A program made the position numbers and the translations under genes. Source: Candidatus Methanoperedens sp. (GTDB lineage: Bacteria; Patescibacteriota; Microgenomatia; UBA12405). Taken from it: a stretch of 54,210 bases of DNA. The stretch is taken from NCBI GenBank assembly GCA_035562735.1, contig DATMWB010000014.1:1-54210 (forward strand), given 5' to 3'. Shown piece by piece: positions 15,485 through 48,649 of this stretch; position 1 is the first letter of the stretch; each line of letters starts with the position of its first letter. The notes beneath the pieces are model-generated. The model was not told the DNA's origin, searched no databases, and worked only from the letters and a program-made list of their open reading frames with translations.

Positions 15485-15486
15485 AT

Positions 15487-15544: not shown

Positions 15545-15554
15545 CAATAATACG

Positions 15555-32043: not shown

Positions 32044-32823
32044 ATGCTTAGTATTGGGATTGGACAAAGACGGTGGTGGGATTTTTTGTTGACCATGACA
32101 GAAAGAGAAATTAAATCAAAATATAAATTTAGTGTTTTAGGACTTTTTTGGATAGTACTCAATCCAATTATTCAGATGTTGGTAATCGGATTTGTTTTTA
32201 GGTTTTTCACTTCTATAAAAACCGAAATTTACATGATGTATTTATTTTCTGGATTAGTTGTATGGAACTTTTTTTCATCAAGCGTAACTAGAAGTACACC
32301 AGCAATTGTAAATGAAAGATATTTGCTAAAAAAGGCCAAATTTCCTCGGGAGACAATAGTGTTGTCAATTGTATTGTCAAATTTAGTTCAATTAGCACTG
32401 TCAGTTGTGTTGATGATATTAATAGCCATTTTTTTAGGGGTAAAGATTTCCTTTGCTTATTTAATATTTTTACCCTTATCGTTACTATTAATTGCTTTGT
32501 TTACAGCTGGTTTTGCTTTGGTTTTTTCATCTTTGAATGTAAAGTATCGAGATACGAGTTTTGTGATTAATTTTTTAGTTTCAATTTGGTTTTATGCGAC
32601 TCCGGTAATATATTTATTGACAATGTTGCCGGAATGGATGTCAAAGTGGTTATATTTAAATCCTATGACAGGGTTAATAGAATTTTTTCGTTGGATAATG
32701 CTTGGATTAGAAGTTGAAAATTGGTTTTTCATGTGTGGTAATTTGTTTTTTGCATTGCTAACTTTTGTAATTGGAAATTATGTTTTTAAACGGTTTAGTT
32801 TAGATTTTGATGACTGGGTATAA
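32044..32823 (+). CDS. ABC-2 type polysaccharide/teichoic-acid exporter permease (Wzm/TagG-like)
   Basis: EREIKSKYKFSVLGLFWIVLNPIIQM followed by 6 TM helices. Confidence 0.8.
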   Translation: MLSIGIGQRRWWDFLLTMTEREIKSKYKFSVLGLFWIVLNPIIQMLVIGFVFRFFTSIKTEIYMMYLFSGLVVWNFFSSSVTRSTPAIVNERYLLKKAKFPRETIVLSIVLSNLVQLALSVVLMILIAIFLGVKISFAYLIFLPLSLLLIALFTAGFALVFSSLNVKYRDTSFVINFLVSIWFYATPVIYLLTMLPEWMSKWLYLNPMTGLIEFFRWIMLGLEVENWFFMCGNLFFALLTFVIGNYVFKRFSLDFDDWV

Positions 32824-32824
32824 G

Positions 32825-33514
32825 ATGAAAAAAGGGGAAATTATTCTTGATAAAGTATCTAAAATATATGAGTCTAGGCAGGGTGGTGAATTTTATGTGG
32901 CGCTTGATAATATAAATTTAAAAATTAAATCAGGTGATAGAATTGGTCTAATTGGGTGTAATGGAAGTGGAAAGACAACACTATTAAAATTAATCGCAGG
33001 GATTGCAAAGGCAAGTAGAGGAGAGGTGAGAGTTGAGGGAAAGGTAAATTCTCTTTTAGAAATAGGTGCTGGTTTTCATCCGGATTTGTCAGGGATTGAT
33101 AATATAATGTTAAATGGTTTGTTGGCGGGAATGAGCAGAAATGAGGTGTTGGAGTTAAAAAATAAAATTGTAGAATTTTCTGATTTAGGTGAACATATTG
33201 GAATGCCATTTTATACTTATTCTTCAGGAATGAAGTTAAAATTGGCTTTTTCAGTGGCGGTAGCAGCAGATCCTGATATTTTGATTTTTGATGAGGTGGT
33301 ATCGATGGGGGATGAAAAGTTTATAAAAATGTTTAAAGACTATTTTTCAGAGGTTTTGAGACAAAGAAAAACAGTACTTTTTGCAACCCATGTTTTAGAA
33401 GTATTGTCTTTGTATTGTGATAAAACAATTTGGATGGACAAGGGAAGGGTTAGATTGATGGGGAAGACAGATGAGGTTATAAAGCAATATCGTAAGGAGT
33501 ATGGTAATGAGTAA
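32825..33514 (+). CDS. ABC exporter ATP-binding protein (Wzt/TagH-like)
   Basis: Walker A GCNGSGKTTLL, signature YSSGMKLKLAF, Walker B ILIFDEV. The ATG at 32825 follows the permease stop directly. Confidence 0.85.
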   Translation: MKKGEIILDKVSKIYESRQGGEFYVALDNINLKIKSGDRIGLIGCNGSGKTTLLKLIAGIAKASRGEVRVEGKVNSLLEIGAGFHPDLSGIDNIMLNGLLAGMSRNEVLELKNKIVEFSDLGEHIGMPFYTYSSGMKLKLAFSVAVAADPDILIFDEVVSMGDEKFIKMFKDYFSEVLRQRKTVLFATHVLEVLSLYCDKTIWMDKGRVRLMGKTDEVIKQYRKEYGNE

Positions 33515-34223
33515 GACGTCAGATTGGAACAGAGATAAATTTGGTAAAAAAGGGGCTTTTAGTTATTATGAGGGTAACAAAGAAAACTCGATTCGGATTG
33601 AAATAATAAAGAAAAAGGTTGGTGAGTTTTATCAAAATAGAGGAAAAAAGAAATTGAAAATACTGGACTTGGGGTGTGGAGATGGAAAAATATGCCAACT
33701 TTTTAAAAGTATAGGTTTTGACGTATATGGAGTTGACGTAAGTAAGGAAAATATAAAAAAGGTTAACAAGTTAGGTGTTTTTGGATTGGCCGCGAACATT
33801 GAAAAGGGATTGCCTTATGGTGATAATTTTTTTGATTATGTATTTGCAGGTGAGGTGATTGAACACCTAATTGATAGTCGAACATTTTTTTATGAGGTTA
33901 ACAGAGTCTTGAAAAAGAACGGATTTTTATTGATAACCACACCAAATTTGGCTCATTTACCGGAAAGGTTCAGATTACTGTTTGGAAAGAATCCAACTCA
34001 GGTTTCCCCAATTCATGATTTTTTATACTTACATGTAAGACCCTTTACTTGGGATATGTTGAAATATGCTCTTGAGTTATACAAATTTAAAATCTTAAGT
34101 TTGAAATCAACAATGGTGGTGTTTAGGTGGGACGGAGACAGGGTTGTTTGTGGATCAAGGTTTTTGGGAAATTTGTTCCCGACTTTTGGTTTTACGCTGA
34201 TTGTTGAGGTTCAGAAAAGATAG
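33501..34223 (+). CDS. Class I SAM-dependent methyltransferase
   Basis: ILDLGCGDGK motif I; VFAGEVIEHL; LKKNGFLLITTPN. Confidence 0.8.
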   Translation: MVMSKTSDWNRDKFGKKGAFSYYEGNKENSIRIEIIKKKVGEFYQNRGKKKLKILDLGCGDGKICQLFKSIGFDVYGVDVSKENIKKVNKLGVFGLAANIEKGLPYGDNFFDYVFAGEVIEHLIDSRTFFYEVNRVLKKNGFLLITTPNLAHLPERFRLLFGKNPTQVSPIHDFLYLHVRPFTWDMLKYALELYKFKILSLKSTMVVFRWDGDRVVCGSRFLGNLFPTFGFTLIVEVQKR

Positions 34224-34227
34224 AAAT

Positions 34228-34971
34228 TTACGTTGTTTTCTTTAGGATAAAGATGGCGATGTTTGGTATCTGGCTGGCTTTAGCTAAGACTCTTGTTGAG
34301 TTATTTTTTGATTGTGGTTCAAGAAATTGAACAAGGGAAAATTTATTTTTTGAAAAAATATCAATATAATTTTGTAAAGTTCTGTGAATATAGTGGGTCA
34401 TTACTCCGTTATATATTTCTTTAATATATGTTTTTTCTTCAAAGTATTTACCGATTTGATATGGTTTATTGTCTTGTTCCATAAACCAGCGATAATTTTC
34501 TTGGTGATAAAAACAAGGGTGGGGGATGATTATAATAAGGTGTCCGTTTGAGTCTAAATATTGAGAAACATTATTAAGGGTGATGTCTATTTTTTTAAGA
34601 TAGGTAAAGACTAAATTTGAAACCACTAATTTAAATTTTGGTTTATCCTTGTGGTTACTGTCCTTTTTTTCGATATCTTGGATCCAATAATCTATCTTTG
34701 GTGAATGGTTTTTGGCGGCATTGATCATTTCAGGGGACAAATCACAGCCAAAAGTATGCCTCTTTTGGGCAGATATTTGACGAGTAAGAAAACCCTCACC
34801 GCAACCAAGATCAAGAACTTTGTCCCCAACCTTGGTATATTTTTTTAATATTTTCAAAATTGCGGGAACAATTATTTGGGTGTATGGTGAAGGGTAGTTG
34901 TCTGTATTATCGAGGAGCTTTATGTATCCGTCACAATCTTTTTCCCAATATTTTTTACTTAGTGAGGTCAT
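34228..34971 (-). CDS. Class I SAM-dependent methyltransferase
   Basis: VLDLGCGEGFLT motif I; GCDLSPEMI; LDSNGHLIIIIPHP. Confidence 0.8.
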   Translation of the reverse strand: MTSLSKKYWEKDCDGYIKLLDNTDNYPSPYTQIIVPAILKILKKYTKVGDKVLDLGCGEGFLTRQISAQKRHTFGCDLSPEMINAAKNHSPKIDYWIQDIEKKDSNHKDKPKFKLVVSNLVFTYLKKIDITLNNVSQYLDSNGHLIIIIPHPCFYHQENYRWFMEQDNKPYQIGKYFEEKTYIKEIYNGVMTHYIHRTLQNYIDIFSKNKFSLVQFLEPQSKNNSTRVLAKASQIPNIAIFILKKTT

Positions 34972-35024
34972 GTTCCATCATTATAGTCGATGAATGTCAT
35001 TTTGTGGTAAGATTTTTCAAATAA

Positions 35025-36524
35025 ATGAAAGTATTACTTATATATCCACCGGTGACTTGTGTAGGGTCCGGTTTGGTGGTTACTTCACATGCGCCAATGG
35101 GATTGATGTATTTGTCTTCATATATTAGACAAGTTGGGCATGAAGTGAAATTGTTGGATGCATTGGCTGACGGAAAAGATAAGGTCATTAAAACAAGGAA
35201 TGGAGTACGTTTAGGAATGACATGGTCTCAAATAAAGAAAAATATTGATAAATTTGGACCGGAGGTTGTGGGTTTGAGTGTAATGTTTACTGCATATTAT
35301 GAGGATGCTCTTGATTTGGCAAAAAAGATAAAAAAACACTATCCAAAAGTTAAGATTGTTTTTGGCGGTTCTCATGTTAGTACCAATCCCTGGTTATCGA
35401 TGAAGGATAAGGTAATTGACTATATAGTTTATGGTGAGGGGGAATTAACTTTTGAGAAGTTGTTAAAAACGTTGGAAAGTAAAAAGAAAGATTTTTCAAA
35501 GATATATGGCTTGGCATATAGGTTGAAGAGAAAGACAGTAGTAAATAGACCGGCTGAGTTGATAAAAGATTTGGATATCTTACCTTTTCCAGATTGGAAT
35601 ATGCTTAATTTGAAAAATTATGAGCTGGGTGATGAGTCGCAGGTGATGAGAAAACCATGTTTTAGTGTAGAAACATCAAGAGGTTGCCCCAATCATTGTA
35701 TGTACTGCTCATCTTTTGCGGTATGGAGGCACCAATGGAGAGGGAGAAGTCCAAAAAATGTGTTGGATGAGATAGAAAATTTGGTTAGAAATTTTGGAGC
35801 TCGAGAAATTGCTTTTTATGATGATAGTATGTCGGTTGATAGAAAAAGAATGGTTGAAATATGCAAAGGAATAATAAAAAGAAAACTTGATATTAAGTGG
35901 ACCCCTCCAAATGGCATAGCCCACTGGACATTAGATAAAGAATTATTGGTATTAATGAAAAAATCAGGTTGTTATAAGATAACTTTTGGAATTGAATCGG
36001 GGGATCCCGAGACCAGAAGGTGGGTAGGAAAACCATATGATTTAAATCAAGCCAAGGAATTAACAAAATTTGCCAATGATATTGGCTATTGGACTTTGGC
36101 GACAAATATCATTGGTTTTCCTTATGAAACAAGGGGGCAAATAAGAAAAACTTTGGACTATGCAATTGATTCTGGGGTGGATACGGCATTGTTTTTCAGG
36201 CTGGGGTTGAGGCCAGGGGCACCGGTATATGGGATATTTGAGAAGGAGGGTTGGTTACCAAAAGACAAAAAAGTTTTATTTACAGAAAATTTATCATTGG
36301 ATACAAAGTATATAAAGGGTAGCGAGTTGGTGGAATTACAACAGAGAATGTATGAAGAATTTATGAGAAAAAGATGGGGGAGTATTTCCGTGGTAGTTAA
36401 ATTGTTAAAAAAGATTAGATCAATAGAGGATATGTTTTATACTCTCAAACAAATGAAATATATATATGACTTTAGAAGTGGTTGGGTTGGGCGCAGGTCA
36501 GGAGTTATTTCGAAAAGAGTGTAG
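35025..36524 (+). CDS. B12-binding-domain radical SAM protein (class B)
   Basis: N-terminal Rossmann-like B12 domain (KVLLIYPP...GLMYLSSYIRQVGHEVKLLD), then ETSRGCPNHCMYCS (CxxxCxxC). Confidence 0.85.
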   Translation: MKVLLIYPPVTCVGSGLVVTSHAPMGLMYLSSYIRQVGHEVKLLDALADGKDKVIKTRNGVRLGMTWSQIKKNIDKFGPEVVGLSVMFTAYYEDALDLAKKIKKHYPKVKIVFGGSHVSTNPWLSMKDKVIDYIVYGEGELTFEKLLKTLESKKKDFSKIYGLAYRLKRKTVVNRPAELIKDLDILPFPDWNMLNLKNYELGDESQVMRKPCFSVETSRGCPNHCMYCSSFAVWRHQWRGRSPKNVLDEIENLVRNFGAREIAFYDDSMSVDRKRMVEICKGIIKRKLDIKWTPPNGIAHWTLDKELLVLMKKSGCYKITFGIESGDPETRRWVGKPYDLNQAKELTKFANDIGYWTLATNIIGFPYETRGQIRKTLDYAIDSGVDTALFFRLGLRPGAPVYGIFEKEGWLPKDKKVLFTENLSLDTKYIKGSELVELQQRMYEEFMRKRWGSISVVVKLLKKIRSIEDMFYTLKQMKYIYDFRSGWVGRRSGVISKRV

Positions 36525-37146
36525 ACAATTCCCAGATGGGAATTGCTTTAAATCCATATTTTTTGGCAGGTAAAATATCATGGCTTATTGAGTCACCGAC
36601 AAAGAGGTGACGAAATTTTGCAGCATTGGTAAAATCAAGGATTTGCTCGAATATTTTTGAGTTTGGTTTTAGAAGTTTAGTGTTGTCGCGAGCAAAGATT
36701 TTTTCGAAAGGTCCAGTATTTTTTTCTTTGGTGTTAAAGCCAATTTTTTTTAAACAGGAAAGAACTTCGGAAGTAGTGGAGTTGGTAAGTATTAGGTGAT
36801 GATATCGATCTTGTGATGCTTCAATTTGCTTGACTAAAGATAAGTTTTTTTTGAGATATTTGCTTTTATTTATTTTTGAATCGACAATGTCTAGTACTTT
36901 AATTTCTAGAGTAGAAGTGAGATGGGCAGCTGCAGCGGACCAAGAACCAAATTTTTCACTTATCTTTTTGAAGGAATTTGTGGAAAGAGTTTTATTTTTT
37001 TTCTTGGCAACTAAATAAAACTCTTGGAAAAGGTCATGACCTAGCTTTTTATTTTCGTATAAAGTGCCATCAAAATCCCAGACAATATATTTGGTGGTAT
37101 TTCGAATAATAAAAGAATTCAAATTATTTAAAGAAAACCTTATCAT
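36505..37146 (-). CDS. HAD-superfamily hydrolase
   Basis: Motif I IVWDFDGTLY, motif II LILTNST, motif IV FVGDSISHDI. Confidence 0.7.
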   Translation of the reverse strand: MIRFSLNNLNSFIIRNTTKYIVWDFDGTLYENKKLGHDLFQEFYLVAKKKNKTLSTNSFKKISEKFGSWSAAAAHLTSTLEIKVLDIVDSKINKSKYLKKNLSLVKQIEASQDRYHHLILTNSTTSEVLSCLKKIGFNTKEKNTGPFEKIFARDNTKLLKPNSKIFEQILDFTNAAKFRHLFVGDSISHDILPAKKYGFKAIPIWELSTLFSK

Positions 37147-37149
37147 TGG

Positions 37150-38283
37150 TTAAATACGAGGTATGTTATCTCGAGTTGTATTTGGAGAAACGACAACAAC
37201 TTCGGTGTTTTTTCTAATTTCATCGAGATTCTTACAGCCGAGATACCACATGGAACGACGTAGTCCACCAACGAGTTCTCCAACAATTTGGATAACACTA
37301 CCCTTATAGGGGATTAGGCCAGAAACGCCTTCATGAGTAAAACTAAAGGGCTGACTGTAACTGGATACAAAATGATTTTTGTTTGATGATGGATAATGGA
37401 TTATTTTTTTTATGATTGTTTTTATAAGCTGGAGATAGTTGATAGGAGATAATTTGGGTTTGTATTCAGTTTGGTTGCTGCACATACCAGCAGAAAATTT
37501 ATAATTTTGGCCATTCCTGGTGATAATTGGACCTGGGCATTCGTCTGTACCTGAAAAAAGACCACCAATCATTACTGCACTGGCACCAAATGCAATGGCC
37601 TTGGTAATATCGCCAGCATGTTCGATTCCCGTATCAGAAATTAGGGGGACATTGTATTTTTTGGCTATTTGATAGCAATCTAGAACTGCACTTAGTTGAG
37701 GTCGACCAACGCCGGTAACTAGTCTGGTGGTACAGTGAGAACCACCACCAATGCCAACTCGAATACTATCGGCCCCAGCCTTGATTAAGGCTTCGGTGGC
37801 TTTGCCGGTGACAACAAGAGCAACACATACTTGGGCGGAGGGGTGTTTCTTTTTGATTTTTTTTAAAAAGTTAATTGTTTGTAGGTTTTCAGCTTGAGCG
37901 GTTTCAATACATATCAAATCAGTTTTTAGTTTTAGTAAACGCGAAACATGTTGTAGTCCTTTTGGGGAAAAATCAGAAACTGATACTGCAATTTTTACAT
38001 GATGTTTTTTAATTTCTTTGACTTGTTGAAGTTGTTTTTTAAAGCTTTGAAAACAATGCAAAAATGCTATACCACCAAGTTTTCCTAGGGCGATAGCCAT
38101 CTTTGTTTCACTAATATTTGGCATTGGTGACGAGCAAATAGGGATATCAATTTCAAGATTTTTTGAAATTTTTGTTTTTAAATTTGTTTTTATAGTGTCT
38201 TCGATCATTGAAAAATCAGAATAAGCTGGCAGGAGTAAGACATCATTAAAAGTTAATTCAGGAGTATTTGAAAGTATTTTCAT
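37150..38283 (-). CDS. IMP dehydrogenase / GMP reductase family oxidoreductase lacking the CBS subdomain
   Basis: [41 protein letters not shown], catalytic-loop [35 protein letters not shown]. At 377 aa there is no Bateman insert. Confidence 0.8.
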
Positions 38284-38315
38284 ATAGATAGAAAAGAGTA
38301 TACCAGCTTAAAAAT

Positions 38316-39476
38316 TTATATAAAAATTGACCTTGGTTTTTTGAAGATAAAATCAGGACTTTGGTTTAGGTTGTATGCTCCGATGGCGAAAAAAATAACA
38401 AAGTCGTTTGGAAAAAGGGGAGGAAGGATATCTTGGTAGAGTAGGTCAGATTCTTGACAGGTACAACCAAAAATTTTGGTAGAAAGAACTTTTGAGGAGA
38501 TATTCTGCTGGGGAGAAAAATCTTGATTGTAAGTTTTAATAATTAATTTATGATACCAGGCCGACGGAAGCATGTTGATGGTTGTGTCTAGAGTGACTGA
38601 CTGGGAATTAGCACTTAATTTTGAGTCAATTACTTTACTGACCATGATAGTTGAATCATCAACTAAAAAACGTCCTGGTTCAATAATGAGGGAGATTTTT
38701 CTATTTATGTGTTTTTTTAAGGGTATTGAGATTGCATCAATATATCTTTTTATATCAGGTTGGGATTGAACCTCTGAACCGGGAATAATGGAGTGTGATG
38801 GAAAGCCACCACCAAAGTCGATATATTTTAGAGTATTTTGTGATAGATATTTGGAAATAAAGCTGGAGACGATGTTGGAATATTTCTGATATGTTTTTGG
38901 TTGGTGGATGTCACTGCCGATATGAATGTGAAGACCACTTAATGGAATATGGTGTTCATGAAGTAAGGATATGGCTTTTTTTGCATCTCCTGATTCGATA
39001 TTAAAGCCAAAACGACTTGGATGAAAGTCGGAATTAATTCTAATGCCGATTTTAGCATTAATATTTTTTTTATATTCAAATAAGGATTTTAATTCCGTAA
39101 AGTTGTCTATATTTATAGTTAGTGGTTGAGATAGAATTTGGTGAAGATTGCCTTTATTTGGGCCATTAAAGATAATTGACTCGTAGGAATACTTTTGTTT
39201 TAGAGCCATTTCTAGCTCAAATTTGGAAACAACTTCAGATAACTGAAAATTGAAATTTTTAGCTATGTCGTAATTTGTTTTATAAGAATAAGCAACCTTT
39301 ACATTTTTTGGAATTTGATTTAAACGTTTTTTGATAATATCTTTGTCGGTAATGAAAACTGGAGTTTGGTAATAATTTTTCAATATGTTTTTTGTAGTTT
39401 TAGGATGGTCAACAATATTTGGAAAATATGAAAAATCAATTGGTAGAGAACTTTTTTTGAGAAAGGCTAATTTCAT
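38316..39476 (-). CDS. PLP-dependent decarboxylase, Orn/DAP/Arg decarboxylase family (fold type III)
   Basis: VAYSYKTNY (PLP lysine), LHIHIGSD, IDFGGGFP, IIEPGRFLV, FGCTCQESDLL. Confidence 0.75.
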   Translation of the reverse strand: MKLAFLKKSSLPIDFSYFPNIVDHPKTTKNILKNYYQTPVFITDKDIIKKRLNQIPKNVKVAYSYKTNYDIAKNFNFQLSEVVSKFELEMALKQKYSYESIIFNGPNKGNLHQILSQPLTINIDNFTELKSLFEYKKNINAKIGIRINSDFHPSRFGFNIESGDAKKAISLLHEHHIPLSGLHIHIGSDIHQPKTYQKYSNIVSSFISKYLSQNTLKYIDFGGGFPSHSIIPGSEVQSQPDIKRYIDAISIPLKKHINRKISLIIEPGRFLVDDSTIMVSKVIDSKLSANSQSVTLDTTINMLPSAWYHKLIIKTYNQDFSPQQNISSKVLSTKIFGCTCQESDLLYQDILPPLFPNDFVIFFAIGAYNLNQSPDFIFKKPRSIFI

Positions 39477-39504
39477 GTAATTGAATGTATTATAATGGAG
39501 ATTA

Positions 39505-40179
39505 ATGTTTGATTGGAGTTCTGATAGAAATTTAGTAAATAAAGAGAATACCGAAAAGTTTATTAGGTATTTTGCCCGTGAAGATGTTTGGCACCATCAG
39601 GATATTAGTAAAGGAGGCTTGGGATATGGTTGGGTCCATTATTCGTTAATTAGATTGATAAAAGCTAAAAATATTTTATGTGTGGGAAGTAGATGGGGAT
39701 TTATACCAGCGGTGTGTGCCTTGGCATGTAAAGATAGTAACTATGGCCAGGTGAATTTTGTTGATGCGGCATATGATATGGATGATTATGGAAAGGTTGC
39801 GGGGAAACACTGGGGTGGTCAGGGTTTTTGGAAGAAATGTAATCCAAAAAAATATTTTGGTAAATTTGGCTTAGAAAAATACATTTCTTTGCATGTCATG
39901 ACTACTATAGAATATGCTTCAAAATATAAAAAGGAAAAATATGCTTATGTGCATATTGATGGGGATCACTCCTATGAGGGAGTAAAACAGGATTTTGAAT
40001 TATTTTGGAAAAAAGTAGTGAAAGGTGGATTTTTGGTAATACATGATGTTTTTAGTCCAGATAAAGATGGAAATGTATATGGTACGAGAAAATTTTGGGA
40101 AGAAATTAAAAAGAGTGGAAAATATAAATTGATTGAGATTCGAGAAGATCCGGGAGTGGGAATTATTCAAAAAGATTGA
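39505..40179 (+). CDS. Class I SAM-dependent methyltransferase (Methyltransf_24/CmcI-like)
   Basis: ILCVGSRWGF..., YVHIDGDHSYEGVKQDFELFWKKVVKGGFLVIHDV. Confidence 0.6.
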   Translation: MFDWSSDRNLVNKENTEKFIRYFAREDVWHHQDISKGGLGYGWVHYSLIRLIKAKNILCVGSRWGFIPAVCALACKDSNYGQVNFVDAAYDMDDYGKVAGKHWGGQGFWKKCNPKKYFGKFGLEKYISLHVMTTIEYASKYKKEKYAYVHIDGDHSYEGVKQDFELFWKKVVKGGFLVIHDVFSPDKDGNVYGTRKFWEEIKKSGKYKLIEIREDPGVGIIQKD

Positions 40180-41236
40180 GAGCAGCGGTTTTGTTTCGCC
40201 TAGTGTCGGCTTTGTTACAGACAATAATTTTACAACTTTGTCGACAATTTCGAATATGATCACGTTGGGTTTGAGCTGTCTTACTCCACCAGATGGTTTG
40301 AGGAGTATCTTTTAAGATGTTGCCGATAATTGGGAAGCCAAAACAGAGGCGAATATTGCCCTGATGGTCGATGATAAAGTTGTTGACACCTGCTGCACAG
40401 GGTTGACGACTAAACATATTGGGATTTTGGTAGTAACGAATGGCAGTTTTAAGATCTGAGTGCGAGGTGATAATGATGGGTTCTGACTTAGTAGTTTTAA
40501 TGATTTTTTTTAAAACGGCTGTAATTTTGCTTTTTTGCGGCCAAAGTGGGTTATTTTTTGACATGTGAGTACTACTATTTGGTCCTAGATTCGGAAGAAG
40601 ACATTGAAAGCTAATACCATTAGTCTCATTCTTTTTGGCAATTTTTATTAATTTCTCTAATTCAGCGACATTTTGTTTCATCATAACGGTGTTGATATAT
40701 ATATATGGTTTTGATGGTGTTTCTTGAAGATATTTGATGGCTTTGATGGCTTTACCATAGGTACCTGGTACACCGCGAAGATAATCGTGGGTTTTTGCGG
40801 TTGCACCATCTATAGATATGGAAATGGCATACAAATGATTTTCAACTAGCTTTTTTGCCATTGGTTTATCTAAAAGAGTAGCATTGCTATTAATGTGAGA
40901 AATTATTCCTAGACTATAGGCATAACCAATAATTTTAGGGAGATCTTTGTTCATCAGCGGCTCCCCACCAGTAAAAAAAATGTAGCAGTTGCCAAGCCAA
41001 GAGTGAAGTCTATCAATAATAATTTTAGCTTCATTAAAGGTGAGATGTTTTTCAGGAGGATTTTTCCAAATGTCACATTGTCGACATTTGAGAACACAGT
41101 TTGGAGTTAGATTAAAAATAATTGAGGTGGGTTTATTGAGGGGTTTTTTTAGGTTAAGAGAGGCGTGAATTAGCATGTCTTGCCACCAAGTGGAAACTTC
41201 TATTTGAGCTAGTTTTATTTTTTTGGGAAGGTTCAT
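40163..41236 (-). CDS. Radical SAM protein with a SPASM-type C-terminal domain
   Basis: LTPNCVLKCRQCDIW (CxxxCxxC), FFTGGEPLMN, C-terminal CAAGVNNFIIDHQGNIRLC plus a further Cys pair CRQSCKIIVC. Confidence 0.85.
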   Translation of the reverse strand: MNLPKKIKLAQIEVSTWWQDMLIHASLNLKKPLNKPTSIIFNLTPNCVLKCRQCDIWKNPPEKHLTFNEAKIIIDRLHSWLGNCYIFFTGGEPLMNKDLPKIIGYAYSLGIISHINSNATLLDKPMAKKLVENHLYAISISIDGATAKTHDYLRGVPGTYGKAIKAIKYLQETPSKPYIYINTVMMKQNVAELEKLIKIAKKNETNGISFQCLLPNLGPNSSTHMSKNNPLWPQKSKITAVLKKIIKTTKSEPIIITSHSDLKTAIRYYQNPNMFSRQPCAAGVNNFIIDHQGNIRLCFGFPIIGNILKDTPQTIWWSKTAQTQRDHIRNCRQSCKIIVCNKADTRRNKTAALNLFE

Positions 41237-43095
41237 GTGTGTTTTGGAACTATTTTAAGTAAAGGTTGGAGTGTAATATTCCAATCCAAGTTTCTGTAGA
41301 TTTTTAATGATTCTTGATGTTTTGAAAACCAATACTTTTTTTGAGAATATTTTTTAATCTGTTTGTCAATATTCTTTTCATTATAATAGATGGTGGCCTT
41401 TTTAAGTAGCTCATCTTTTCTCCATTCAGGACATAAAACAGGAAGACCATAGCTAAGATAAAGTAGATGTTTAGCTGAGAAGCCTTCGGAACGAAGTTTG
41501 TCTTGAGATAAAGTTATTAGACCAAGTTGGTAATTTGAAATTGAATCTTCGTTTTTTAAATATGATTTATAGTTGTCTAGTTTTGGATATAAAGTGGGAT
41601 CTGGTTTTTCATAACTGAAAATATCGATTTGATGATGCTGGGAAATATATGACAACATTTTTGGATTGACCCAATATGAATTTAGTTTACCCAGATGAAT
41701 TATTTTGATTGGTTTTTTAAAAACTGAGATTGAAGATTGTTTTTGACAACCCCAATTTAAACAAAGAGAATGTTCGGCTTTGAAGCCAAGTCGTATGGCT
41801 AGTTTTTTATAAGTGTACCAGTGAAAGGATGTGTAATCAGATTTTTGAAAAACCATCTTTTCATACTTTTTAAGTATGTTAATGGTATTTTTAGAGAATA
41901 CTTGACTGTGTTCTAGTTCGCTTGAAAAAATAGTGGGGGAGTCATATAAAGTTTTATATGGCCTATTTTGATTTGTAACAATGAGCATGTCTTCGGGGTA
42001 TTGAACAATTGCTAGAGTTGTTTTGTTTTTTTGTAAAAGCCGATTTAGAATCATTGATTTTAAAAGCATGGTTTCAATTAAAAGTAGGGGATAGATATCA
42101 AGCTGATGATAAGTGTAATAACTTTTGAGGAGGCGATATTTTAAAAGGCGCCAACCATAAATAAAAAGGTAGCGACGAGAGGCAATAACTTTTTGAAATT
42201 CTTGATGTGAATCAAGAGTAGTTACATAATGGTGATGTTTTGTCAGAAATTTGAAAAATGCCTGTGACCTTTGTTGGTTGGCTCCGGAATCATTTTTATT
42301 AATGATGGTAATAGGTCTTGGAAAATTTTTATTGTACCCGATAATAAAGGCAATTTTTAGAATAGAGGTAATGGAAAAATTTAATGGGAATATTGAAGGC
42401 TGATAGTTATCAAAGTTACCCCATTTTTTTGTTATTTTTGCCTTGAATTGACCACGGATGTAACTTTTTTTTAGGCTTGAAAAGAGGCTTGAGTTTTCAG
42501 GATGGCTAACAACCATTTGTGGATTATAAGCACTGACAAACTGATATTCTTTTAGTTGTTGGTTAAAGTCAACATCTTCAAATATTTTAAATTTTTGATC
42601 AAAACGAAAATTCTTAATTTTCTGGTGGTTAAAAATTACATTTTTGGTGTCGAGAGGATGAGAAAGATTGAACCATTTTTGATAATTATCATATTGGCAT
42701 TTAGCTATTTGACTCTGCTTATTTAAGAGGATTGTTTTTCCTACAACAAAGGCTACTTTGGAATGTTTTTTTATAAAATCATATGCAGATATTGTCCAGT
42801 TTTTGTAAAGGATACAGTCGTCGTCTATGAATGCTAAATATTTTGTATGACATTTTTTTATTGCTTGATTACGAGCAAGTGGAATGCTGGGTTTTTTAAT
42901 AAAATAATAAGTGGATTGGAGCTTTTTATACTTATGGCAAAGATTTTTGATTTCTTGATGAAAACAATTGTCGATTATTAATACCTTTTGGGGGTGGTGT
43001 GACTGTCTATAAAGACTCTCAAGACATTTTTCAAGTTGTTTTGGTCTTTGATAGGTTACAATGGCGACAGTTAAGTCTTTGATGATGGTTGACAT
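41233..43095 (-). CDS. Two-domain glycosyltransferase: N-terminal GT2 (GT-A) plus a C-terminal GT-B-like domain
   Basis: N-terminal VAIVTYQRPKQLEKCLESLYRQSH, VLIIDN, AFIDDDC (DxD). The C-terminal part ends SEGFSAKHLLYLSYGLPVLCP, resembling the E-x7-E / G-x-PV region of GT4 enzymes. Confidence 0.7.
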   Translation of the reverse strand: MSTIIKDLTVAIVTYQRPKQLEKCLESLYRQSHHPQKVLIIDNCFHQEIKNLCHKYKKLQSTYYFIKKPSIPLARNQAIKKCHTKYLAFIDDDCILYKNWTISAYDFIKKHSKVAFVVGKTILLNKQSQIAKCQYDNYQKWFNLSHPLDTKNVIFNHQKIKNFRFDQKFKIFEDVDFNQQLKEYQFVSAYNPQMVVSHPENSSLFSSLKKSYIRGQFKAKITKKWGNFDNYQPSIFPLNFSITSILKIAFIIGYNKNFPRPITIINKNDSGANQQRSQAFFKFLTKHHHYVTTLDSHQEFQKVIASRRYLFIYGWRLLKYRLLKSYYTYHQLDIYPLLLIETMLLKSMILNRLLQKNKTTLAIVQYPEDMLIVTNQNRPYKTLYDSPTIFSSELEHSQVFSKNTINILKKYEKMVFQKSDYTSFHWYTYKKLAIRLGFKAEHSLCLNWGCQKQSSISVFKKPIKIIHLGKLNSYWVNPKMLSYISQHHQIDIFSYEKPDPTLYPKLDNYKSYLKNEDSISNYQLGLITLSQDKLRSEGFSAKHLLYLSYGLPVLCPEWRKDELLKKATIYYNEKNIDKQIKKYSQKKYWFSKHQESLKIYRNLDWNITLQPLLKIVPKHT

Positions 43096-44468
43096 TGAGA
43101 GTTAATAAAACCAAGAGTAAACATAAATAAATCAAAACTTGGATCTAAATTTAGTAAAGGATGGAATTGACTGCTAATTAGAAAGGTCATGGCCCCGACG
43201 ATAGCTCCAAAGCATATTAGATATGAAGAGGGTTTTATTTTTTTAAAAAATATTGATTTGAAGACAAAAAAGATAAAAAATGAAGCAGCAAAAATGCCAA
43301 GTTCGGAAGTAATAATTAATAGGGTGTTGTGAACGGGGACGATAAAACCGTCAAGATTTTTGGGTAATTTTTGCTCAATAAGATAGTTGGTAAAGTTATT
43401 TAAACCGACTCCTAAGGGATGTTGACTAACCATAATTAAGCTTTGCCACATTAGCTCTAATCTAATGGAAGCATTGCCATTGTCTTCAAATATTTTGGTA
43501 ATTGATTGAATTCTACTGGCGATAATAATTATGGAAATGGCTATAAATATTGAAAGAATAATTTTCCCCCATTTTTTGGAAATTAGAGGTAAATATTTGT
43601 TTTTTATATTTGGAAAAAGCATAATGAGGGAAAGTAAAAGTGTGAACCAAACAGAGCGACTATTTGTGCCAAGCATTGTAATAATTCCGATAAGTGATAT
43701 TGGAAGGGTCATGGCGTAGTTTGTGTAAATTCCATAACTTATAAATATTGGTAAAAGAATAGACATAAAACTACCAAAGTAAACTGGGTGAGAAATAAAT
43801 CCAGAGACACGGTATTGTGCTAATCCATCAGTTGTTGAATAACCTTGATCTTCACTAAAAGAGGGTGTTAGTTCAATGAATTTTCCGAGTGGTCTTTGTT
43901 TGATTATTTGATTAAACCCAATAAGAGTGGAAAAAATGAATATTGAACTGACAATGATAGGAAATAGATTAAATTTTTGTTTAAAAAATATTTTGGCTGA
44001 AAAATATATGAAGACTGAAAGCCAAAGTCTGAGTAAGCCGAGGAAGGTGATGGTTGAAGAGAAAAATATGGTATTTATACAAGCGATACTAAAAAAAATA
44101 ATTAATGGCCAGTCGTCTTTGAAGGAAGGTAAAGAAATTTTTTTGTAGTTGATGATTAGAAGGAGAAACAAAAATAAGGCGAAAATTAGTTTTAAATTTA
44201 ATCCAAAATAAAAAGAATATCCAGATGTGGGGACACCAACAAAGAGAGGATTTGTTACTTCAAATAGCCACTCACGAAGATTATTTTCAAAAGGTAGAGA
44301 GAGGAAAAAAGTTATAAGGGTGGTGTTTATCAACGAAAATTTAAAATAAAGGAAGAGTATTGCTGGAGCTAATAAGAAAATTAAAATGTATGATTTTACG
44401 TTAAATATAACGAAAAATAGTAAGTAAAATCCGCTTAGAAAAAGAAAAAGTCGCTGGTTATTTGACAT
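43071..44468 (-). CDS. O-antigen ligase / Wzy-like polytopic membrane protein
   Basis: More than 10 TM helices. GTNSRSVWFTLLLS and PVHNTLLIITSELGIF are typical of the Wzy_C/O-antigen ligase domain. The start is set at MSNNQ (44468) to minimise overlap. Confidence 0.7.
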   Translation of the reverse strand: MSNNQRLFLFLSGFYLLFFVIFNVKSYILIFLLAPAILFLYFKFSLINTTLITFFLSLPFENNLREWLFEVTNPLFVGVPTSGYSFYFGLNLKLIFALFLFLLLIINYKKISLPSFKDDWPLIIFFSIACINTIFFSSTITFLGLLRLWLSVFIYFSAKIFFKQKFNLFPIIVSSIFIFSTLIGFNQIIKQRPLGKFIELTPSFSEDQGYSTTDGLAQYRVSGFISHPVYFGSFMSILLPIFISYGIYTNYAMTLPISLIGIITMLGTNSRSVWFTLLLSLIMLFPNIKNKYLPLISKKWGKIILSIFIAISIIIIASRIQSITKIFEDNGNASIRLELMWQSLIMVSQHPLGVGLNNFTNYLIEQKLPKNLDGFIVPVHNTLLIITSELGIFAASFFIFFVFKSIFFKKIKPSSYLICFGAIVGAMTFLISSQFHPLLNLDPSFDLFMFTLGFINSQCQPSSKT

Positions 44469-45291
44469 CCTCAATCTCAAGGCCATATAAATTGATGTTT
44501 TGACTGTAGAAGTATATAGAGTTGCCAACTTTAATTTGTTGGTGTCCCGCAAAATACCAACGTCCATCAATAAGTTCGGTGTTTACCTGAAAGGTTACAA
44601 CAACATCCTTGGCATTTTCATTTAGTTTAAAACCTAGACTTTGGTTGTTGTTGGTCAATTCACTAACATATATTCTGGTTGTTTTTTCAGTATGAAATGA
44701 AGTAATAGTAGCTATGATGCTTTGATCATAGCGATTTTTCATAACGTCGTTAATTTTTATATTGTTTATTATATAGGCATCAATTCCTCGACCCCGAGCG
44801 GTAACGGTAAATGTTTTTTTTGGATAACCTGATGATGGCATGTCAATATCAACAATTTGCCCATAAACAATATTTTGATCTGGGGCAATTTCGATGGCGG
44901 AACCTAGGTCTAAAGGCTTATTTTTGAAAATATGTTGTTGAATTCTTTTTTGATAGGTTGTTCTTAATTTCACTGTTAGGTAGACATCAGCTTCTTCTGA
45001 ACCTCTTTCATAGTTTTCGACATTGATTATTTCGGCAATAACTTTTCCTGACTTACCATATTCCTTTTGACCTATTTTTAGTTTGTCACTGAGCCAAAAT
45101 GGGGTTCTGTATCCATAGGGATTGTAATTTTCTGCCCAACTCTTGTTGATGATTTCGATTTTGACAGTTTTCCATTCGACTTTCTGACCAAAAAACTTGA
45201 TAACAAAGACGACAAAGACAATAATTGAAATTGAAATAAAAACTTCAAAAATACTCAAGGTTTTTAGCCGTTGTTTTACCCATTTAAACAT
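44458..45291 (-). CDS. Membrane-anchored beta-rich protein of unknown function
   Basis: The only evidence is one N-terminal TM helix (IFEVFISISIIVFVVFVI), ORF length and its operon position ahead of the Wzy-like gene. Confidence 0.4.
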   Translation of the reverse strand: MFKWVKQRLKTLSIFEVFISISIIVFVVFVIKFFGQKVEWKTVKIEIINKSWAENYNPYGYRTPFWLSDKLKIGQKEYGKSGKVIAEIINVENYERGSEEADVYLTVKLRTTYQKRIQQHIFKNKPLDLGSAIEIAPDQNIVYGQIVDIDMPSSGYPKKTFTVTARGRGIDAYIINNIKINDVMKNRYDQSIIATITSFHTEKTTRIYVSELTNNNQSLGFKLNENAKDVVVTFQVNTELIDGRWYFAGHQQIKVGNSIYFYSQNINLYGLEIEDVK

Positions 45292-45312
45292 AGGTTATTA
45301 TATTACATAGAG

Positions 45313-46434
45313 ATGAAGATAGCTAAAAGAGGTGTTTTTAGAAAAATTGGTGAGTTGTTGGACGGTTTTTTCCGATACAACATACAATCAAAGTTTTTTC
45401 CTTTGAGTCCTAGGAGTCTGATGATAAATTTGACATACAAATGTAATTCAAGATGTGTGATGTGTAATATATGGAAGATTAGACCTAAAAATGAGATTAC
45501 ATATGAGAAATGGCAGGAGCTTATGAAAGATAATATTTTTTCTGATATACGTAATCTAACAATTTCAGGCGGGGAGCCGGTTTTATATACTGACTATGTC
45601 AAATCTGTAAAACTTTTCGTTGACTCAATGCCAAAGCTGAGGAGATTGGTGCTTAATACGAATGGATTTTTACCAAAAATAATTGAGGAGAGTATAAGAG
45701 AAATTGCAAAATATTGTGTTAAAAGAAAAATAAAGGTAGCGGTTTCAGTATCAGTTGATGGGGTTGGGTCAGTGCATGATAAATTGAGGCGGATACCTGA
45801 GGGATTTAAAAAAGCAACAGAGACGATTAATCGCTTAAAAAAGATATGTAATGAGTTTGATATCAGTGTGGGAGTCTCAACGGTGATAATGAGACAAAAT
45901 GTAAAAAGTTATTGGGAGATGAAAAAATGGTTACAGAAGAATGAAATAAATGGCGGTTTTCAAATTGTAGGTTTTCATAAAGATTTTTTGAAAAATAAGT
46001 CACAAGAGAAAAAAATAGGGATAAATTCGATGGTTAAAAATGATTTCTTGGAGGTACTTGGAGATGTTCGTAACTCGAGAAATAAGTTTTCGTTGATTCG
46101 ATATTATTGGGACGACATGATTCAGATGTATGGGGAATCGTCTTATCGAAGTACTCCTTGTCCCTTTTTGAAAGATGACTTTGTAATTGATAGTTTGGGG
46201 GATGTTTACTACTGTTTGTCAGTGAGACCTATTGGAAATTTTTTGAAAGAAAAAAGATCGGTTGGCAAGATATATTTTGATAAAAAAAATATTCTTTTTA
46301 GGAAAAACTTACCCAGGAGGGATTGCCAAAATTGTAATAGCGGATGTAATGTCACAAATGGGATAGCCTTTGAAGCTAAACGTTATATTTGGTACAAATT
46401 AACTGGAAGTCTGTGGCCGATTAAAAGTATTTGA
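45313..46434 (+). CDS. Radical SAM protein with a Cys-rich (SPASM-like) C-terminus, paralog of 40163-41236
   Basis: LTYKCNSRCVMCNIWK, ISGGEPVL, C-terminal CPFLKDDFVIDSLGDVYYC and CQNCNSGC. The start is set at 45313 (MKIAKRG). Confidence 0.8.
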   Translation: MKIAKRGVFRKIGELLDGFFRYNIQSKFFPLSPRSLMINLTYKCNSRCVMCNIWKIRPKNEITYEKWQELMKDNIFSDIRNLTISGGEPVLYTDYVKSVKLFVDSMPKLRRLVLNTNGFLPKIIEESIREIAKYCVKRKIKVAVSVSVDGVGSVHDKLRRIPEGFKKATETINRLKKICNEFDISVGVSTVIMRQNVKSYWEMKKWLQKNEINGGFQIVGFHKDFLKNKSQEKKIGINSMVKNDFLEVLGDVRNSRNKFSLIRYYWDDMIQMYGESSYRSTPCPFLKDDFVIDSLGDVYYCLSVRPIGNFLKEKRSVGKIYFDKKNILFRKNLPRRDCQNCNSGCNVTNGIAFEAKRYIWYKLTGSLWPIKSI

Positions 46435-47515
46435 TATAGTTACGGATATGTCTTTGCTGATTTTTAAGAATTTTATCGAGGTAGATTTGTAGATAAGTGG
46501 TGACTGGTATTTTAAGATCTTTTTGAATAATATTGGCTGCTTGGATATCTGTATCGTAGATTATTTTTGATTTATCCTTTGTAAAAAACTGTGATATTTC
46601 GGGGATGTTTCTGAGAACTGGAATACAGCCACTACTAATGGCTTCCATCAAAGTTAATGGAAAACCTTCATAGTCAGAGGATAAAAGAAATATCTTGGAA
46701 TTTGAATAATATTTTGAAGTGTCTAGTGTTGGTTTGATAATTTCGACATTTTTTTGAAGAGATAATTTGTTTATTAGTTTGATGATTTTTTTGCGGTCAT
46801 CACCATCTCCGACAATTTTAACCTTCAATTTGGGTACATTTTTGGTTACTAATTTAATTATTTGAAGAAAGAGTGGTAAATTTTTTTGGGCATCAATACG
46901 ACCGACAAAGAGGATATCGATTAGTCTTTTGTTTTGTGGAATTATTTTTTGAGGTGGGTAGTCGAGGGGTAGCCAGTTTGGTGAAGCAACAATATTTTTT
47001 TGCGAATGTCCATGATAAATCATTTGCTCTAAATCTTTTTTTTGAATAGGAGTTTGGACAAGGATGGTGTTGGCAAGGGGGTAAAGCCATTTTATGAGTA
47101 GTTTTCTTAAGGAAGGAAAAGTTTCTGTATAGACATATTTTGAGGTAAGGATGTCTTCACCAATGGTTAAGCGAGGTTTAAGCCATGGTAAGAGCTGAAG
47201 AGCTACTAAAGTGGGAACAGTTCCAAGATCCATAAAGGAAAGAATTTTGTCTGGTCTAACAATGGCTAGTTTTTGGATTAGCCAGAGAGTAAACCAAGTT
47301 ATATTGAAATTATGTGTATGAATGCTTGGAGCAAGTACGGTTATATCTTTGGGGATACAATCTAGAAAAATTCCTTCACGTTTTCGAAGACATAAAATTA
47401 TCTTTGTATTAGGGAGAAACTTTTGGTGGTATTTGATAATGTCAAGAATTTTCCTTTGGATACCTCCAAGTCGCATATCATGGAAGACAATCATGAGGGT
47501 ATGTTTTGTTTTCAT
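46421..47515 (-). CDS. Glycosyltransferase family 4 (GT-B)
   Basis: FVGRIDAQKN, LLSSDYEGFPLTLMEAISSGCIPV. Confidence 0.85.
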   Translation of the reverse strand: MKTKHTLMIVFHDMRLGGIQRKILDIIKYHQKFLPNTKIILCLRKREGIFLDCIPKDITVLAPSIHTHNFNITWFTLWLIQKLAIVRPDKILSFMDLGTVPTLVALQLLPWLKPRLTIGEDILTSKYVYTETFPSLRKLLIKWLYPLANTILVQTPIQKKDLEQMIYHGHSQKNIVASPNWLPLDYPPQKIIPQNKRLIDILFVGRIDAQKNLPLFLQIIKLVTKNVPKLKVKIVGDGDDRKKIIKLINKLSLQKNVEIIKPTLDTSKYYSNSKIFLLSSDYEGFPLTLMEAISSGCIPVLRNIPEISQFFTKDKSKIIYDTDIQAANIIQKDLKIPVTTYLQIYLDKILKNQQRHIRNYIKYF

Positions 47516-48615: not shown

Positions 48616-48649
48616 CTATAAGCTGATTTTAACAGGTATAATTGGCATA

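Follow-up and report, generated by a model that had tools for sequence, protein, structure and literature searches.

Radical SAM enzymes and a conserved IMPDH-like module in the tailoring part of a probable cell-surface glycopolymer locus of Candidatus Shapirobacteria

A surface-glycan locus equipped with tailoring genes is a known kind of system, and its closest described representatives are the pathways for O-antigen exported by Wzm/Wzt and for wall teichoic acid (TagA, TagGH). The locus considered here lies on contig DATMWB010000014.1 of GenBank assembly GCA_035562735.1 (the whole stretch analysed, positions 1 to 54,210, is referred to below as the window). It has in common with these pathways an ATP-binding cassette type 2 (ABC-2) permease with its ATPase, a WecG/TagA-family enzyme, an initiating transferase, and glycosyltransferases of families GT2 and GT4. 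In contrast to them, the ATPase of the window lacks a carbohydrate-binding extension, and no glycerol-phosphate or ribitol-phosphate polymerase is encoded in the window; conversely, its two to three radical S-adenosylmethionine (SAM) enzymes and its set of IMPDH-like protein, HAD phosphatase, and decarboxylase have no counterpart in characterised systems. Methyltransferase genes adjoin the transporter, a point of likeness to ABC-dependent glycopolymer pathways with terminal capping. The region is probably the tailoring part of a locus for a polyprenol-linked, ABC-exported cell-surface glycopolymer in Candidatus Shapirobacteria (Patescibacteria).

The families expected of an ABC-transporter-dependent, lipid-linked glycan pathway (PF01061, PF00005, PF02397, PF03808, PF00534, and PF00535) are all found in the window. 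The exporter consists of a Wzm/TagG-like ABC-2 type permease (32044-32823, plus strand; Pfam ABC2_membrane, 84 bits) and a Wzt/TagH-like ATPase (32807-33514, plus; ABC_tran). The initiating enzyme is a polyprenyl-phosphate sugar-phosphate transferase (52315-52932, plus; Bac_transf 167.7 bits, NCBIfam EPS_sugtrans 197 bits), and three GT4 glycosyltransferases (46421-47515 and 47515-48615, minus; 48575-49759, plus; Glycos_transf_1) and a WecG/TagA-family glycosyltransferase (49752-50453, plus; Glyco_tran_WecG, 119.9 bits) are encoded nearby. Judging by their sequences, the initiating transferase, the WecG/TagA enzyme, the GT4 enzymes, and the ABC-2 pair are together the mark of a pathway for a lipid-linked polymer. 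Two Wzy_C-family membrane proteins accompany them. One (43071-44570, minus; 58.9 bits) could be either a polymerase or a ligase by family; the other (50446-52278, minus; 67 bits) bears a C-terminal extension, and a comparable Wzy_C protein with faint TPR matches occurs in L003, one of the related loci, which are designated by L numbers throughout. Since export uses an ABC transporter, both are more likely ligases than polymerases. A GH39-like glycoside hydrolase (30656-32023, minus; Glyco_hydro_39), together with a NodU/CmcH-type carbamoyltransferase (28748-30448, minus; Carbam_trans_N/C), flanks the transporter.

The tailoring genes at 33501-46434 form a real block, which is part of the surface-glycan locus and whose genes are co-inherited. 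All open reading frames (ORFs) named in an earlier, sequence-only reading of this DNA are present, and their families are confirmed by the ORF listing and by Pfam and NCBIfam scans, which took in the larger ORFs of the window and passed over some of the smaller ones of at least 100 aa. As that reading had held, the block is embedded in a surface-glycan locus, with the ABC transporter, Wzy_C, and glycosyltransferases around it. After the exporter come two class I SAM-dependent methyltransferase genes, MT_a (33501-34223, plus; Methyltransf_11/23/31, below all NCBIfam cut-offs) and MT_b (34228-34971, minus; Methyltransf_31/12/23), followed by a gene for a B12-binding class B radical SAM enzyme (35025-36524, plus). 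The minus strand then encodes a HAD-family phosphatase with a DxDGT motif (36505-37146; HAD_2, Hydrolase), a CBS-less enzyme of the IMPDH/GMP-reductase superfamily (37150-38283; Pfam IMPDH, E 1e-95), and a fold-type III pyridoxal phosphate (PLP) decarboxylase of the Orn/DAP/Arg family (38316-39476; Orn_Arg_deC_N and Orn_DAP_Arg_deC). A Methyltransf_24 methyltransferase gene on the plus strand (39505-40179; 58 bits) overlaps by its 3′ end, over 17 nt, the 3′ end of the oppositely oriented gene for SPASM1 (40163-41236, minus), a radical SAM enzyme with a reduced SPASM/twitch-like C-terminus. Thus far the three methyltransferases, the HAD protein, the IMPDH-like enzyme, and the PLP decarboxylase of the sequence-only reading are all borne out by the Pfam scans. 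The block is completed by a GT2 glycosyltransferase fused to a 380-aa orphan C-terminal domain (41233-43095, minus; Glycos_transf_2, residues 9-118), the first Wzy_C protein, its partner, a DUF4330-like protein with an N-terminal membrane anchor (44458-45291, minus; a weak DUF4330 match, 23.3 bits), and SPASM2, a second SPASM-type radical SAM enzyme (45271-46434, plus). The SPASM2 gene had been placed at 45313-46434; the gene itself is confirmed, and its start may be TTG 45271 instead of ATG 45313. Likewise, of the proposed GT2/GT-B fusion, the GT2 part is supported by Pfam and the GT-B part by neither hidden Markov model (HMM) nor PDB-profile searches: the C-terminal half gives no Pfam match at E<=1 and none in the PDB-profile search, hhalign against the GT4 alignment of the locus returns 8% probability, and the single-sequence AlphaFold model is poor (predicted local distance difference test score, pLDDT, 31). 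A GT4-like ‘EGFSAK...GLPV’ motif is nevertheless visible in this half.

The closest relatives of the locus are found in metagenome-assembled genomes named Candidatus Shapirobacteria (Patescibacteria/Microgenomates), with L011 sharing 62-91% amino acid identity along the locus. Gene order is the same in relatives at 58-88% identity, and it is also the same around homologues of the B12 enzyme at 74% and 58% identity, so that the block is strongly co-conserved in related loci. According to a tblastn matrix, the Shapirobacteria-type loci possess a fixed core consisting of the GT4 genes, SPASM2, the DUF4330-like gene, Wzy_C, the GT2 fusion, SPASM1, the opposite-strand Methyltransf_24, the decarboxylase, and the ABC transporter. 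SPASM2 orthologues share 47-74% identity in L003, L007, and L010-L013; the three GT4 genes are syntenic in L007 and L009-L013; the fold III decarboxylase is kept in every locus of this type; and Methyltransf_24 is always antisense to its neighbours (L001-L013). In more distant loci, Methyltransf_24 and the decarboxylase often have the same orientation. Synteny extends to both GH39 and the carbamoyltransferase in L011 and L048, and only to GH39 in L010 and L012.

The decarboxylase and the ABC exporter are separated by a variable slot, occupied in the window by the IMPDH-like gene, HAD, the B12 radical SAM gene, and two methyltransferase genes. Slots of the first type combine the IMPDH-like/HAD pair either with a B12 radical SAM gene (the window; L001, where it is present twice; L003) or, in L011, L012, L046, and L048, with a third SPASM1 paralogue (348 aa, 33% identity) in the position of the B12 enzyme. 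These genes are usually accompanied by one or two class I methyltransferases, and MT_b orthologues share 49-64% identity in L003, L011, and L012. The B12 enzyme can thus be exchanged, its place being taken by a SPASM1 paralogue in the nearest relatives, and it counts as an accessory; SPASM1 and SPASM2 are part of the core of the lineage. The second type of slot, with a QueC-like gene, is considered below.

The IMPDH-like gene has a wider, conserved neighbourhood. ORFs were clustered from 36 dereplicated loci of the IMPDH-like clade (39-100% identity), and a gene family was counted in a locus if it lay within 7 kb of the IMPDH-like gene. HAD was found in 30 of the 36 loci, Methyltransf_24 in 28, the ABC ATPase in 25, and the ABC-2 permease in 19. 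An Orn/DAP-type (fold III) decarboxylase is present in 19 and a PF00282 (fold I) decarboxylase in eight, which gives 27 loci with a PLP decarboxylase of one of two unrelated folds. Less constant are SPASM radical SAM enzymes (18), Wzy (17), class I methyltransferases of the MT_b cluster (15), the DUF4330-like protein adjoining Wzy (10), B12 radical SAM enzymes (8), and RihC-like nucleoside hydrolases (4). The decarboxylase, the IMPDH-like enzyme, HAD, and Methyltransf_24 are thus a conserved quartet beside the ABC exporter. That an enzyme of a different fold takes over the decarboxylase position in some loci shows that the module requires decarboxylation as such. One contig bearing the module (L057) also has a bona fide archaeal Dph2 gene, and the module therefore crosses domains. 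Dph2 was also considered as a donor of a 3-amino-3-carboxypropyl group for the decarboxylase; it scores as genuine archaeal Dph2 and is more likely a housekeeping neighbour.

The three radical SAM enzymes are the most conspicuous members of the block. One B12-binding class B enzyme and two paralogous SPASM-type enzymes with a common signature had been proposed, and the Pfam scans largely agree. SPASM1 and SPASM2 both carry the C-x3-C-x2-C-(D/N)-IWK signature (CVLKCRQCDIWK and CNSRCVMCNIWK) and are paralogues with 28% identity (E 2e-23). Their Radical_SAM scores are 77.5 and 66.9 bits, respectively, and the SPASM HMM gives 20.8 bits for SPASM1, just under the cut-off of 21.5, and 22.4 bits for SPASM2. 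In the SPASM1 family alignment, C47, C51, and C54 are invariant, as are C280, C298, C331, C335, and C340 in the C-terminal part, where seven cysteines had been suggested; only five are conserved, and the pattern is not that of the seven-Cys SPASM motif. None of the three radical SAM proteins reaches a curated NCBIfam cut-off: the best scores are 118 bits for SPASM1 (AhbD, cut-off 500), 67 bits for SPASM2 (cut-off 306), and 205 bits for the B12 enzyme (cut-off 575). On these scores they are not housekeeping enzymes. The sequence-only reading had been staked on the radical SAM proteins lying outside housekeeping families and on the genes being co-conserved, and both expectations hold. Its remark that three radical SAM enzymes are unusual for a polysaccharide cluster has to be dropped, since several radical SAM genes per glycan locus are common in these Patescibacteria; the feature is typical of the lineage and not unique to the window. 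SPASM-methyltransferase gene pairs likewise recur in the gene maps of relatives.

The closest solved structure to SPASM1 is BlsE, the cytosylglucuronate decarboxylase of blasticidin S biosynthesis, both by profile (1.2e-17) and by fold, with template modelling (TM) scores of 0.66/0.71 on a confident model (pLDDT 87); the predicted fold resembles SPASM/twitch enzymes in general. BlsE acts on a sugar acid. SPASM1 differs from it in that identity is about 19%, the NCBIfam BlsE model gives 52.7 bits against a cut-off of 400, and the C-terminal cysteine pattern is its own, with five invariant residues. Weaker matches in the PDB-profile search include BtrN and DesII.

An exhaustive HMMER profile search retrieved 1536 representatives of the SPASM1 family at E<=1e-30; the idea that the family is rare, raised by a word-indexed search with 35 matches, was rejected. 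Many of the top matches are long proteins. In P0280, P0294, and P0300, Pfam recognises a GT2 domain fused to two SPASM-type radical SAM units, and tandem radical SAM/SPASM fusions of two or three units are also seen. These natural fusions, to which P0276 also belongs, are proteins of 600-1900 aa. In the window, the end of the GT2-fusion gene and the beginning of the SPASM1 gene share 4 nt. The overlapping genes found here thus have their match in proteins that naturally join GT2 and radical SAM units, which ties the SPASM1 family to glycosyltransfer and not to peptides.

SPASM enzymes are best known as peptide maturases, and it might be supposed that those of the window mature a ribosomally synthesised and post-translationally modified peptide (RiPP), or that the transporter exports a free nucleoside-like metabolite, so that a secondary-metabolite cluster would lie inside a glycan locus. 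SuiB, anSME, CteB, and SkfB indeed score nearly as well as BlsE, and an ABC exporter adjoins the block. However, no adjacent precursor ORF had been seen in the sequence-only reading, and there is too little room for a precursor gene: the intergenic spacings between 33.5 and 46.4 kb are only 4, 53, 32, and 28 nt, and a small-ORF search of the block found no free-standing candidate, all ORFs of at least 20 aa being embedded in larger genes. Moreover, Wzy, GT2, and GT4 genes are the constant companions of SPASM1 and SPASM2, and a pathway with an ABC-2 transporter, an initiating phosphotransferase, and WecG/TagA speaks for a lipid-linked polymer. Because the SPASM1 family includes fusions to GT2 and the block has no separate peptide ORF, a RiPP role of the SPASM enzymes is unlikely, and the explanation as a whole, with its metabolite variant, has only a very slight chance of being correct.

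The B12 enzyme has the class B architecture, namely, an N-terminal cobalamin-binding domain (B12-binding, PF02310, 80.8 bits, cut-off 32.1) followed by a radical SAM core (PF04055, 74.5 bits) whose CxxxCxxC motif reads CPNHCMYC. This architecture is common to TokK, PhpK/Sden_1168, Fom3-type enzymes, AprD4, and OxsB. AprD4, like BlsE a sugar-acting radical SAM enzyme, and TokK are the best PDB matches, and OxsB and CysS are also among them. By its NCBIfam scores, however, the enzyme falls below every equivalog cut-off and belongs to none of the characterised groups (PhpK/Sden_1168, BchE, HpnJ/R, TokK-type, and others): the score of 205 bits quoted above is for the Sden_1168 P-methyltransferase, and the next are 184 bits against 481 and 177 against 578. 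No phosphonate genes are present in the window. A homologue with 47% identity (L006; JGI 3300024995, Ga0210018_1000073) is found on a contig with a phosphonate cluster, whose cassette consists of a CTP-transferase/phosphoenolpyruvate mutase fusion, phosphonopyruvate decarboxylase halves, and an iron-dependent alcohol dehydrogenase; beside this cassette, the contig encodes five radical SAM enzymes with a B12-binding domain and an asparagine-synthase-like protein.

The AprD4 match brings up the product suggested by the sequence-only reading, an aminoglycoside- or aminocyclitol-like unit made by a BtrN-type dehydrogenase, a GenK-type C-methylase, a BtrK-type decarboxylase, and a carbamoyltransferase. 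BtrN and DesII are indeed among the weak matches of SPASM1, BtrK is among those of the decarboxylase (5.6e-14), and the carbamoyltransferase is confirmed. But the family scans of the larger ORFs of the window contain no cyclitol synthase and no sugar aminotransferase of the DegT type, the likeness to AprD4, BtrN, and BtrK stays at the superfamily level (the AprD4 model gives 75 bits against a cut-off of 500), and the conserved partners of the block, that is, the IMPDH-like enzyme, HAD, and the ABC-2 exporter, are not enzymes of aminoglycoside pathways. An aminocyclitol-like product is very unlikely.

The IMPDH-like protein retains the TIM-barrel family fold of IMP dehydrogenase/GMP reductase (PF00478) and its catalytic Cys loop GxGxGSxCTTR, which aligns with GVGPGSICTTR of 1vrd and is invariant in the family. 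The Gly-rich phosphate loops, which in IMPDH structures hold the ribose-5′-phosphate, are also invariant, and an invariant His precedes the catalytic Cys, placing the protein in a distinct ‘GS-H-C-TTR’ clade. In contrast, the family keeps neither the Arg-Tyr flap nor the GNxxT, IDTAHGHS, and YRGMGS motifs; residues 269-312 form a non-homologous K-rich insert without RY, and the CBS domain is missing. The clade is large, with CBS-less proteins of about 370 aa in Patescibacteria and on contigs labelled DPANN, and its members are named ‘GMP reductase’ or ‘IMP dehydrogenase’ in public annotation. No equivalog score is attained: the NCBIfam IMPDH model (TIGR01302) gives 298 bits against a cut-off of 481.5, and the GMP reductase models PRK05096, TIGR01305, and PRK05458 give 208, 189, and 153 bits against 397, 492, and 344, respectively. 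Homologues with 30-32% identity and ‘GSHCTTR’ from brine and marine metagenomes (L084-L125) are likewise CBS-less and without the Arg-Tyr flap, and they keep the NAD-contact motifs (VDVAHGH, GNVAT); they were excluded from the module as they lack HAD, Methyltransf_24, and decarboxylase neighbours.

The partners of this enzyme are similarly remote from characterised proteins. HAD gives weak full-length matches to pyrimidine 5′-nucleotidase/SDT1-type enzymes. The decarboxylase has both Pfam domains and the KTN, GGGF, and EPGR motifs in common with FslC, BtrK, and diaminopimelate decarboxylase; its best PDB match is FslC (2e-32), which acts on an N-omega-acylated ornithine, N-citrylornithine. It remains under the NCBIfam cut-offs, with 142 bits against 298 for lysA and 122 against 500 for FslC, and differs further in that its position is filled by a PF00282 enzyme in other loci; those fold I enzymes resemble His/Tyr decarboxylases. 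The sole PDB match of Methyltransf_24 is weak (6g7d, ‘Methyltransferase domain protein’, 3e-5); we take this structure to be the sugar (mannoside) 1-O-methyltransferase MeT1.

A simple explanation would be that the IMPDH-like and HAD genes serve ordinary purine salvage (guaB/guaC plus a nucleotidase) and lie in the locus by chance, leaving a glycan role only for the radical SAM enzymes, methyltransferases, and glycosyltransferases. Patescibacteria depend on salvage, the similarity to the IMPDH family is very strong with an intact catalytic Cys, and the public names say as much. Nevertheless, adjacency to HAD, Methyltransf_24, the decarboxylase, and the ABC exporter is kept at 39-88% identity across bacteria and archaea, despite the change of decarboxylase fold, and the pair is absent from the same locus in the close relatives L009 and L010. 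The loss of the Arg-Tyr dyad and the NAD-contact motifs also speaks against salvage, as does the distant ‘SHC’ subfamily, which has the NAD motifs and not these neighbours. This explanation is quite unlikely.

In four Shapirobacteria-type loci (L007-L010), the slot represents the second type: a divergent QueC-like PP-loop protein is encoded there, the IMPDH-like/HAD pair is missing, and SPASM1, Methyltransf_24, and the decarboxylase form a trio that is as constant as in the other loci of this type. The IMPDH-like/HAD pair (36 loci) and the QueC-like gene (4 loci) are never found together among the loci examined. Two of the four also hold 7-deazaguanine genes. In L007 (12892-17121), FolE and QueD above curated cut-offs, a QueE-like protein, and the divergent QueC-like protein are encoded next to the same decarboxylase; L008 (3023-8270) carries a queuosine-precursor transporter (130 bits against a cut-off of 51) and a QueF-like T-fold protein. 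No deazaguanine genes are found in the flanks of L009 and L010. The slot of L010 (13445-18201) contains genes for a metallophosphoesterase, a D-2-hydroxyacid dehydrogenase, a DegT aminotransferase, and a methyltransferase along with the QueC-like gene, a set reminiscent of a pathway that converts a phosphorylated hydroxy-acid into an amino compound. Since a QueC-like gene stands where the IMPDH-like and HAD genes are absent, in two cases with 7-deazaguanine genes, the gene content points to a substituent that would be purine-related or an amine rather than an aminocyclitol.

Divergent QueC homologues of the RoyL type, peptidyl-7-deazapurine amide synthetases, have been described to ligate Lys, Orn, or 2,4-diaminobutyrate to 7-carboxy-7-deazaguanine, and PF00478 GMP-reductase homologues serve in the clusters for toyocamycin and tubercidin, the former having a HAD protein (PF00702) listed as well (preprint 10.64898/2026.04.15.718813). 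The pairing of the window gene with HAD is as reported for toyocamycin among the ToyE/TubD-type homologues. The window itself contains no RoyL-type protein, and the proteins of L007-L010 are likened to RoyL by description only; they are very divergent, scoring 36-54 bits to QueC, with Cap9 as the best PDB match. Nor is a 7-deazapurine (preQ0 or 7-carboxy-7-deazaguanine) cluster found in the window, where only the PF00478 homologue and HAD are present, as opposed to FolE, QueD, and the QueE-like and QueC-like proteins of L007.

By analogy with these precedents, the module could make a purine- or 7-deazapurine-diamine conjugate. The IMPDH-like enzyme would form the Cys-thioimidate E-XMP* from IMP or GMP, and, the water-activating Arg-Tyr flap being absent, the omega-amine of a diamino acid could attack it to give an N2-substituted GMP. 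The decarboxylase would then remove the alpha-carboxylate and HAD the 5′-phosphate, with Methyltransf_24 and SPASM1 finishing the unit before its attachment to the glycan; in the sister loci, the divergent QueC-like protein would act as an amide synthetase coupling to 7-carboxy-7-deazaguanine. Such a scheme would agree with the mutually exclusive genes beside a constant trio, with the deazaguanine genes of L007 and L008, with the invariant His and missing Arg-Tyr dyad, and with the N-omega-acylated ornithine taken by FslC, the best solved relative of the decarboxylase. Against it stand its purely analogical basis, the small number and great divergence of the QueC-like proteins, the flanks of L009 and L010, the PF00282 decarboxylases, which resemble His/Tyr decarboxylases and not diamino-acid enzymes, and the lack of an enzyme assigned to joining base and glycan; neither a phosphoribosyltransferase nor preQ0 genes are present in the window. 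The conjugate has a small but appreciable chance of being the right explanation. The mutual exclusivity and the deazaguanine genes also suggest a related, more general idea, which is doubtful and likewise drawn by analogy, that a guanine-type heterocycle with a decarboxylated diamino acid may decorate or cap an exported glycopolymer in some Patescibacteria and apparently in some DPANN archaea. Here the covalent thioimidate of a repurposed IMPDH-family enzyme would undergo aminolysis, which creates a C-N bond; in the sister loci, 7-carboxy-7-deazaguanine would instead be the substrate of a RoyL-like QueC homologue, and radical SAM enzymes fused to or adjoining GT2 would then remodel the unit. 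If true, the IMPDH fold would gain a reaction new to it, and the glycan would be the first on a cell surface to bear a purine or deazapurine.

On the preferred reading, the tailoring of a polyprenol-linked, ABC-exported glycopolymer, the SPASM-type enzymes would act on sugar residues of the growing glycan alongside the adjoining GT2 enzyme, likely by oxidation, decarboxylation, or epimerisation of hexoses or uronates (cf. BlsE, BtrN, and DesII). The B12 enzyme may C-methylate a sugar or a side chain, and the methyltransferases may O-methylate. The products of the operon decarboxylase > IMPDH-like > HAD and of the neighbouring Methyltransf_24 gene on the other strand would jointly make a small amine-bearing substituent, probably from a phosphoribosyl compound or nucleotide. 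A nucleotide-type substrate is suggested by the invariant catalytic Cys and Gly-rich loops, the weakly 5′-nucleotidase-like HAD, and the recruitment of RihC-like hydrolases. The substituent would join the polymer as a side group or a chain-terminating cap before ABC export, and the constant position of the quartet beside the exporter would fit a role in capping or decoration. A cap at the non-reducing end, governing chain length and export, is suggested only by this adjacency and by the weak 6g7d match of Methyltransf_24.

Several points weigh against this reading. No enzyme of the block has a characterised orthologue, all matches being under curated cut-offs; the margin of BlsE over peptide-modifying SPASM enzymes is small for SPASM1 (E 1.8e-14 vs 3.5e-14); and genes for NDP-sugar synthesis are not found in the window, so that the sugars themselves are not given by the genes. 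We know of no IMPDH-family enzyme from any glycan pathway, and NCBI gives the clade the name ‘GMP reductase’. The two decarboxylase folds may make different amines instead of one, and the product may be exported on its own instead of decorating a polymer. Literature searches found nothing relevant on this gene combination in Candidate Phyla Radiation or glycan contexts, and both the IMPDH-like module and the link between GT2 and radical SAM enzymes appear undescribed in the literature searched.

Patescibacteria and DPANN archaea are ultra-small and mostly attached to other cells, and their surface polymers therefore probably mediate contact with hosts and phages; to our knowledge, almost nothing is known about the chemistry of these polymers. 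The locus defines a widely shared, uncharacterised module (IMPDH-like, HAD, PLP decarboxylase, and Methyltransf_24 beside an ABC exporter) and a radical SAM family linked genetically, and sometimes physically, to GT2 glycosyltransferases. The IMPDH-fold clade without a hydrolytic flap and the radical SAM enzymes, which likely act on glycans, are attractive targets for enzymology. Slot-wise swapping of B12 for SPASM radical SAM enzymes and of the IMPDH-like/HAD pair for QueC-like proteins probably diversifies the surface.

Some other features of the window deserve mention. Rfam and tRNA scans of the window returned no matches. Its GC skew is very strong and independent of the coding strand (+0.29 overall; on the top strand, +0.33 over plus-strand genes and +0.25 over minus-strand genes), and, compared with the products of plus-strand genes, minus-strand proteins are about twofold poorer in Gly and Val and twofold richer in Gln and His. 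A GC-rich patch (13000-16000, 43-46% vs about 33% elsewhere) contains an ORF at 13844-15388 (514 aa) with no credible family match; just upstream, around 12920-13490, the minus strand bears, by eye, what we take to be small genes for an RRM-type RNA-binding protein and a helix-turn-helix protein. The gene at 76-3984 (plus) encodes a 1302-aa alpha-2-macroglobulin-like protein whose bait-region and A2M domains are separated by a Hint/PT-HINT/intein-like insert (about residues 422-556). The stretch from the rpsB region to frr includes a 483-aa ORF matching no family (18187-19638, minus) and a fusion gene (19695-21575, plus) whose product joins a class II glutamine amidotransferase to an N-acetyl-sugar amidotransferase domain of the WbuX-like PP-loop kind (146 bits vs a cut-off of 203); the latter gene was considered as a counterpart of the QueC-like proteins and rejected, having no significant similarity to them. 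Finally, the window has one clear GDSL/SGNH gene (23217-24353) and, in tandem on the minus strand, three paralogues that are weakly GDSL-like (25803-28622); a similar GDSL-like triplet adjoins the ABC transporter in the distant locus L043.

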